From: Promethearchaeota archaeon
GTDB lineage: Archaea > Asgardarchaeota > Lokiarchaeia > Sigyniarchaeales > SOKP01
DNA: 41,094 bases
Direction: 5' to 3'
NCBI GenBank assembly: GCA_030606095.1
Contig: JAUWHC010000001.1
Coordinates: forward strand, 1 to 41,094
Below the pieces are notes generated by a model, which made no database searches, was not told the origin of the DNA, and saw only the letters and a program-made list of their open reading frames with translations. The position numbers were made by a program, and so were the translations under genes. Positions 10,934 through 40,780 of this stretch are shown one piece after another (position 1 is the stretch's first letter; the number at the start of each line of letters is the position of its first letter).

Positions 10934-10985
10934 TACGAATATCACCTCATCTTCAAAAAATTACTAAATTATACTTATCATTACA

Positions 10986-10995
10986 AAATATATAA
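10986..10995 (+). promoter_or_regulatory. Candidate TATA box for tRNA-Leu
   Basis: aatatataag is centred about 27-30 nt upstream of the tRNA 5' end (11020). Confidence 0.35.
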
Positions 10996-11019
10996 GAGAT
11001 AATAAAGAATTAAAATAAA

Positions 11020-11185
11020 GCAGAGATAACCAAGCCAGGTCAAAGCAAGAATTATTTCTAAATAAGGAATAATAAAGCGGCAACCGGTGATGGACATTTT
11101 CAAAAACCATAATCTTTTGCGTTTTTGAACCACACTCAAGATCCATTGACATAGGTCTACAGGGGTTCAAATCCCCTTCTCTGCA
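11020..11185 (+). tRNA. tRNA-Leu(CAA) interrupted by two non-canonical introns (D-arm and anticodon stem/loop junction)
   Basis: Acceptor gcagaga (11020-26) pairs with tctctgc (11178-84); discriminator a11185. D arm is acc-aagccaggtcaaa, then a 41-nt insert (11045-11085), then ggt-g. Anticodon stem atgga (11090-94), then a ~40-nt insert (11095-11134), loop ctcaaga (caa at 11137-39), stem tccat (11142-46). Long variable arm tgacataggtctac; T arm agggg-ttcaaat-cccct. 166 minus 81 gives 85 nt, the class II tRNA size. A T-run follows. Confidence 0.8.
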
Positions 11186-11225
11186 TTTTTTCTCTTCAAA
11201 ATAGGTCTCATTTCAACCTCTTTAA

Positions 11226-37444: not shown

Positions 37445-40780
<3,336 letters not shown>

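Follow-up and report, generated by a model that had tools for sequence, protein, structure and literature searches.

A tRNA-Leu(CAA) gene of a Loki-type archaeon interrupted by two non-canonical introns in the D-arm and the anticodon arm

The window analysed here is a stretch of 41,094 nucleotides that constitutes the 41-kb contig C79 of an archaeal metagenome assembly (G000) of 2.88 Mb, with 31% G+C, 436 contigs and a completeness of about 89%. It encodes an archaeal LSU rRNA as well as a profilin, for which the best matches among solved structures are the Asgard profilins 5ZZA, 7PBH and 5YED/5YEE. The LSU rRNA match (37447-40779) extends over 3333 nt as compared to the 2987 positions of the archaeal model, and the approximately 350 extra bases may represent either enlarged expansion segments or an intron; enlarged LSU rRNA expansion segments have been reported in Loki-type archaea. 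The locus considered in this report is a tRNA-Leu(CAA) gene in three exons at 11020-11185 on the forward strand; it is listed here together with the T-rich tract downstream of it and an open reading frame on the opposite strand:

11020..11185, + strand: tRNA-Leu(CAA) gene of 166 nt, divided by two introns into three exons; CCA is not encoded
11020..11043, + strand: exon 1, with the acceptor 5' strand, U8, the D-stem 5' strand and the D-loop up to A21
11044..11084, + strand: intron 1 of 41 nt at D-arm position 21/22 (most likely boundaries, from the BHB frame scan and the orthologues)
11085..11095, + strand: exon 2 of 11 nt, with C22, the D-stem 3' strand GGT, G26, the anticodon-stem 5' strand ATGGA and C32
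11096..11135, + strand: intron 2 of 40 nt at position 32/33 (likely boundaries, from the BHB frame scan and the orthologues)
11136..11185, + strand: exon 3, with U33, the anticodon CAA (11137-11139), the anticodon-stem 3' strand, the long variable arm, the T-arm, the acceptor 3' strand and A73
11186..11191, + strand: six consecutive T that immediately follow the discriminator (read in the sequence; the orthologues are T-rich here too)
10964..11170, - strand: spurious ORF of 68 aa, lying antisense to the tRNA gene

The six-T run resembles an archaeal terminator and may serve as such.

In its unspliced form, 11020-11185 is not recognized as a tRNA by ARAGORN, and the Rfam search of the unspliced locus gave no tRNA either at the gathering threshold or at E<=10, returning noise only. 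After in silico splicing, ARAGORN called a class II tRNA-Leu(CAA) of 85 nt with an acceptor stem of 7 bp, anticodon and T stems of 5 bp each, the T-loop TTCAAAT and A73, which bears out the preliminary description of this DNA in its claim that the exons reassemble into an 85-nt class II tRNA with a long variable arm. The product combines the long variable arm, the discriminator A73 and the leucine anticodon CAA by which a class II tRNA-Leu is recognized, and its variable arm contains a 3-bp stem that covaries among orthologues. Support for the cloverleaf after intron removal was drawn from ARAGORN, from Rfam searches of natural one-intron orthologues and from the counting of pairs in an alignment of five spliced orthologues with the three intronless Leu tRNAs of the genome. 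All 23 cloverleaf pairs are formed by the spliced sequence of the window, and across the alignment pairing was found in 99.5% of the cells (at most 56% in slid controls), with 12 pairs having changed on both sides. The gene is present as a single copy in the assembly (about 89% complete), where no second Leu-CAA gene was found by ARAGORN or by DNA search.

The same stretch could be read as a small protein-coding gene, given that a frame of 68 codons is open on the minus strand; the preliminary description had drawn attention to a 68-aa ORF over the locus and to the risk of mis-annotation. The ORF is indeed present, and it begins with TTG, is frameshifted by a 2-nt deletion in the orthologous locus L003, which marks it as a non-coding artefact, and retains in distant relatives only its residues 1-23, the part antisense to exon 3. 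We give the protein-coding reading practically no credence.

The strongest evidence for the tRNA reading comes from the relatives, which were found by DNA search in a genus of 42 species-level genomes. The same gene occupies the same syntenic locus in the 16 relatives that were fetched, and the genes on its flanks are shared as well: one is kinase-like (235 aa), one encodes a zinc ribbon (77 aa), one a protein of 122 aa and one an aldolase. The combination of introns differs among genomes as follows:

Type A (the type of the window), 7 genomes including G000: 21/22 intron of 39-41 nt; 32/33 intron of 40 nt; no 59/60 intron
Group B, 13 genomes: no 21/22 intron; 32/33 intron of 36-39 nt; no 59/60 intron
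G022, G019, G045 and G054, 4 genomes: 21/22 intron of 42 nt; no 32/33 intron; 59/60 intron of 30 nt
G007, G003, G041 and G046 (probably also G043 and G020), 4 to 6 genomes: 21/22 intron of 17 or 40 nt; no 32/33 intron; no 59/60 intron

The lengths of 42 nt (21/22) and 30 nt (59/60) were read in the sequences of G022 and G019, and those of 17 or 40 nt in G007 and G003; G045, G054, G041, G046, G043 and G020 were placed by their pattern of BLAST matches. The D-arm intron is thus missing in 13 genomes of the same genus (group B) and the anticodon-arm intron in at least 10. The loci L014-L017, which lack intron 2, contain an unbroken GATGGACTCAAGATCCAT that is exactly the predicted splice product, and in group B exon 1 runs straight into exon 2 as GGTCAACGGCGGTGGA, so that for each intron there are orthologues without the insert at the exact site. 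ARAGORN returned tRNA-Leu(caa) for all spliced orthologues, and the Rfam tRNA model scored 47.6 bits (L016) and 42.5 bits (L010) on one-intron orthologues, the gathering score being 29. Across the genus (42 genomes), none of the matches proved to be an orthologue without any intron. Splicing in silico and the one-intron orthologues together sustain the original proposal of a tRNA-Leu(CAA) with two introns of about 40 nt, and on the sequence evidence the locus is confirmed as a genuine tRNA-Leu(CAA) gene of an Asgard (Loki-type) archaeon with two non-canonical introns. Additionally, a T-loop intron of 30 nt at 59/60 with a strict hBHBh' motif (H/h'/h = 4/5/5) was observed in L014 and L015 (G022 and G019), two loci that also carry the 21/22 intron and lack the one at 32/33.

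The intron boundaries were examined by scoring every junction in the bulge-helix-bulge (BHB) frame, in which a 4-bp central helix (H) is formed between the exon bases that stop two short of the 5' junction and the intron bases that stop two short of the 3' junction, and each strand of this helix is followed on its 3' side by a bulge of 3 nt; the outer helices are that of the intron (h') and that of the exon (h). As a control of the frame, the 37/38 introns of the same genome gave 4/4 central pairs at the ARAGORN junction for Thr-CGT and Thr-TGT, and 4/4 central pairs two bases from the ARAGORN junction for Ser-GGA. At the present locus the frame 11043|11084 gives H/h'/h = 3/2/0 and the frame 11095|11135 gives 3/3/2, while neighbouring frames show 0-2 central pairs. 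The preliminary description had placed the inserts at 11045-11085 and 11095-11134; the D-arm site and the junction of the 5' anticodon-stem strand with the loop were both confirmed, and the likely boundaries lie one base away. The corresponding frames (11044|11085 and 11094|11134) have 1 and 0 central pairs respectively and were rejected.

Intron 1 appears in a relaxed HBh' form, in which H pairs GGTC (11038-11041) with GGCA (11079-11082) in 3/4 positions, the 5' bulge is AA|A and h' joins GC (11045-46) to GC (11077-78). The same frame yields 4/4 central pairs in orthologues (GGTC/GACC in L016 and GGTC/GACT in L017). The choice of frame alters the product, since with the 21/22 frame nucleotide 22 of the mature tRNA is C instead of A. 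A D-arm intron at 11045-11085 (22/23) in the same gene, leaving A22, would be compatible with ARAGORN, which also accepts the A22 product, and with the intronless Leu-CAG paralogue of the genome, which has A at the position of nucleotide 22. However, the 22/23 frame has only 1/4 central pairs and makes nucleotide 22 vary among the orthologues (A, T, T, A), whereas with the 21/22 frame nucleotide 22 is C throughout the four allele types that have a D-arm intron, as it is in the group B allele GGTCAACGG, intronless at this site. We regard the 22/23 placement as improbable, and 21/22 (11044-11084) as the most likely position on the basis of pairing and comparison. The tRNA-Leu(TAA) of L019 (G030), from another genus of the order, likewise has a long intron in its D-arm that fits the 21/22 frame (GGTC.AA|A ... 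GGCT.AA|A), indicating that this site in the D-arm is occupied repeatedly in Leu isoacceptors of different genera.

Intron 2 appears in a relaxed hBH form, with H formed by ATGG (11090-93) and CCAC (11130-33) in 3/4 positions (4/4 for GTGG/CCAC in group B), a well-formed 3' bulge AC|T, a 2-bp h (11088-89 / 11137-38) and a 3-bp h'. It also contains an internal hairpin (11099-11107 / 11121-11129) whose arms differ in sequence and yet pair in the three intron-2 types. Placing the intron at 30/31, 31/32 or 32/33 leaves the same mature RNA, and only 32/33 is BHB-like; the range initially given for this intron (31/32-32/33) included that position, and the mature sequence is unchanged. Intron 2 is accordingly likely to be 11096-11135 rather than 11095-11134, as judged from the frame and the orthologues. 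Another 32/33 intron was noticed in the same genome, in the tRNA-Met(CAT) gene at C294:1854-1970 on the minus strand; it is 41 nt long, has 4/4 central pairs (CCAG.AC|A ... CTGG.AC|T) and its bulges, AC|A and AC|T, are those of Leu intron 2. The tRNA-Met(CAT) intron and Leu intron 2 share no evident sequence similarity.

The BHB structure prediction suggested in the preliminary description thus returned, in the window, relaxed motifs with 3/4 central pairs at both junctions, which are common by chance, and complete central helices (4/4) in the orthologues. The relaxed class arises often by chance where the sequence is AT-rich: within the 166-nt region, 372 junction pairs pass a similar threshold, and a chance rate of relaxed motifs near two-thirds, with placement slack, has been described (10.64898/2026.10.13.758758). 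The BHB motif was consequently rejected as stand-alone evidence and, relaxed motifs being so frequent by chance, it was used only for choosing among the few frames that restore a tRNA. The BHB conformer of intron 1 has a free energy of -13.1 kcal/mol vs -16.8 kcal/mol for the local MFE fold, and that of intron 2 of -10.4 vs -14.6 kcal/mol, that is, 3.7 and 4.2 kcal/mol above the respective minima. When the precursor was folded with RNAfold without constraints, the acceptor stem and the T-arm were retained and other helices (GGT/ACC and GGTG/CACT) were favoured over the BHB conformers, so that folding energy gives the motif of the window no support. The exact cut sites given here for both introns are therefore to be taken as predicted ones.

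These relaxed motifs, which are not the MFE fold, could be expected from a decaying tRNA pseudogene with two disabling insertions that are never removed. Against such decay, the exons are invariant and the introns and flanks are variable: in five genomes of about 97% identity, variable columns amount to 0/85 in the exons, 7/81 in the introns and 41/119 in the flanks. The intron changes fall in hairpin loops and leave the helices of the proposed motifs untouched, with those of intron 1 restricted to 11059-61 and 11073-74, outside the motif; exon 1 is identical across L001-L005 and L014-L016. Moreover, the two-intron form is maintained in 7 species-level genomes, the cloverleaf pairs are all intact, no other Leu-CAA gene was found in the assembly at about 89% completeness, and the genome encodes splicing machinery. 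A pseudogene is a very improbable reading of these data.

Regarding the splicing machinery, the genome harbors two genes with an EndA domain (PF01974), scoring 95 and 72 bits:

C121:468-1070, + strand: EndA gene 1, 200 aa, with the catalytic Tyr, His and Lys kept
C193:156-761, - strand: EndA gene 2, 201 aa, with the catalytic His aligned to Ser

The best match of the C121 protein is Aeropyrum pernix 3p1z_B (8e-34), an alignment that runs gap-free through the N-terminal loop region, and an RtcB gene is also present (105.6 bits). The EndA pair, as read from its sequences, is consistent with an alpha/beta heterotetramer. In Asgard archaea an (alpha-beta)2 EndA with an L1 loop has been described and linked to broad substrate specificity (Kaneta et al., 2018, PMC5829648), and by analogy the enzyme of the present host may be of broad specificity as well. 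In the proposed pathway, the precursor would fold so as to place every exon-intron junction in a bulge adjoining a 4-bp helix, with intron 1 in its HBh' form and intron 2 in its hBH form; after cleavage RtcB would join the three exons, CCA would be added once the exons are joined, and the end product would be an 85-nt class II tRNA reading UUG. Taken together, we hold with high confidence that 11020-11185 (+) is the only detectable tRNA-Leu(CAA) gene of this genome, encoded as a 166-nt precursor with BHB-type, protein-spliced introns at 21/22 and 32/33.

Concerning the content of the introns, neither the C box RUGAUGA nor the D box CUGA was found on either strand of 11000-11200, and when the two introns were compared with the 2.88-Mb assembly by short-word blastn, only AT-rich matches of 13-19 nt came up, without second copies. 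The initial suggestion of C/D-box or repeated sequences in the introns was therefore not borne out, and the introns lack the features both of an intron-encoded box C/D guide RNA of the euryarchaeal tRNA-Trp type and of a repeated intron family of the Thermoproteales type.

Multi-intron tRNA genes are documented in Asgard archaea (Valentin-Alvarado et al., 2024, PMC11291895; Goswami et al., 2026, preprint, 10.64898/2026.10.13.758758), and the present gene resembles them in that several short non-canonical introns occur in one tRNA gene, D-arm introns escape the standard finders, and presence and absence shift repeatedly among relatives. On the other hand, those papers centre on Atabeyarchaeia, Freyarchaeia and Jordiarchaeaceae and report a median intron length of 22-23 nt, whereas the gene described here belongs to a Loki-type genus and its introns are about 40 nt long. 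[quoted passage not shown] Related introns in Thermoproteales recur across tRNA genes and are read as products of transposition, whereas here each intron has no second copy in the genome. A close counterpart of intron 1 is described in PMC5829648 for the Methanopyrus kandleri pre-tRNA-Glu(UUC), whose intron likewise occupies the D-loop in its 3' part, has a relaxed HBh' motif and, as predicted for intron 1, a 5' cut site in a 3-nt bulge between H and h' and a 3' site in a looser loop. The M. kandleri case concerns a different tRNA and lineage and an enzyme without the L1 loop, unlike the alpha subunit here, which aligns gap-free to the Aeropyrum pernix alpha subunit through the region of that loop. 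The phenomenon is already published, and the present gene is a solid but ordinary further case of it.

The gene of the window is a mosaic of the two allele types of the genus. In the 5' part (exon 1, intron 1 and exon 2) the exons match the L014/L016 type at every position, while the 3' part, with intron 2 and exon 3, is of the group B type, exon 3 differing only at position 68, which compensates A5. A maximum likelihood tree of four flanking proteins places type A as sister to the B2 subgroup with support of 99/99; the B2 clade is devoid of intron 1, and each intron state requires at least two changes on this tree. A single clade of loci without intron 1 was rejected (AU p = 0.0002), the group having been named after the tree was seen. 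Repeated loss or gain, or an exchange of alleles, could each explain the mosaic. It is conceivable, although in our estimate rather unlikely, that homologous recombination of a short tract at the orthologous locus carried the intron-bearing half of the tRNA from one species to another; if true, this would provide a concrete route for the spread of tRNA introns, an issue left open in 10.64898/2026.10.13.758758. Whatever its origin, the genus offers at one locus a natural series (21/22 alone, 32/33 alone, 21/22 with 32/33, and 21/22 with 59/60) that could be used for studying the gain and loss of tRNA introns in the closest prokaryotic relatives of eukaryotes.

The locus also has consequences for annotation. 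Standard tRNA finders miss the gene, so the genome would appear to be devoid of tRNA-Leu(CAA), and annotation might put the spurious 68-aa ORF there instead. When ARAGORN was run with introns on the whole genome, 24 tRNA genes were found in 2.88 Mb, 13 of them with introns, and many isoacceptors, including Leu-TAA, were missing from that output. With so few tRNA genes, more than half of which bear introns, hidden multi-intron tRNA genes are probably common in this genome. Within the window itself, ARAGORN calls a tRNA-Glu(TTC) at 23-124 with a 33-nt intron at gene position 26, and an identical call was obtained at C400:2503-2604, which may reflect either an overlap of the two contigs or a duplication of the gene.
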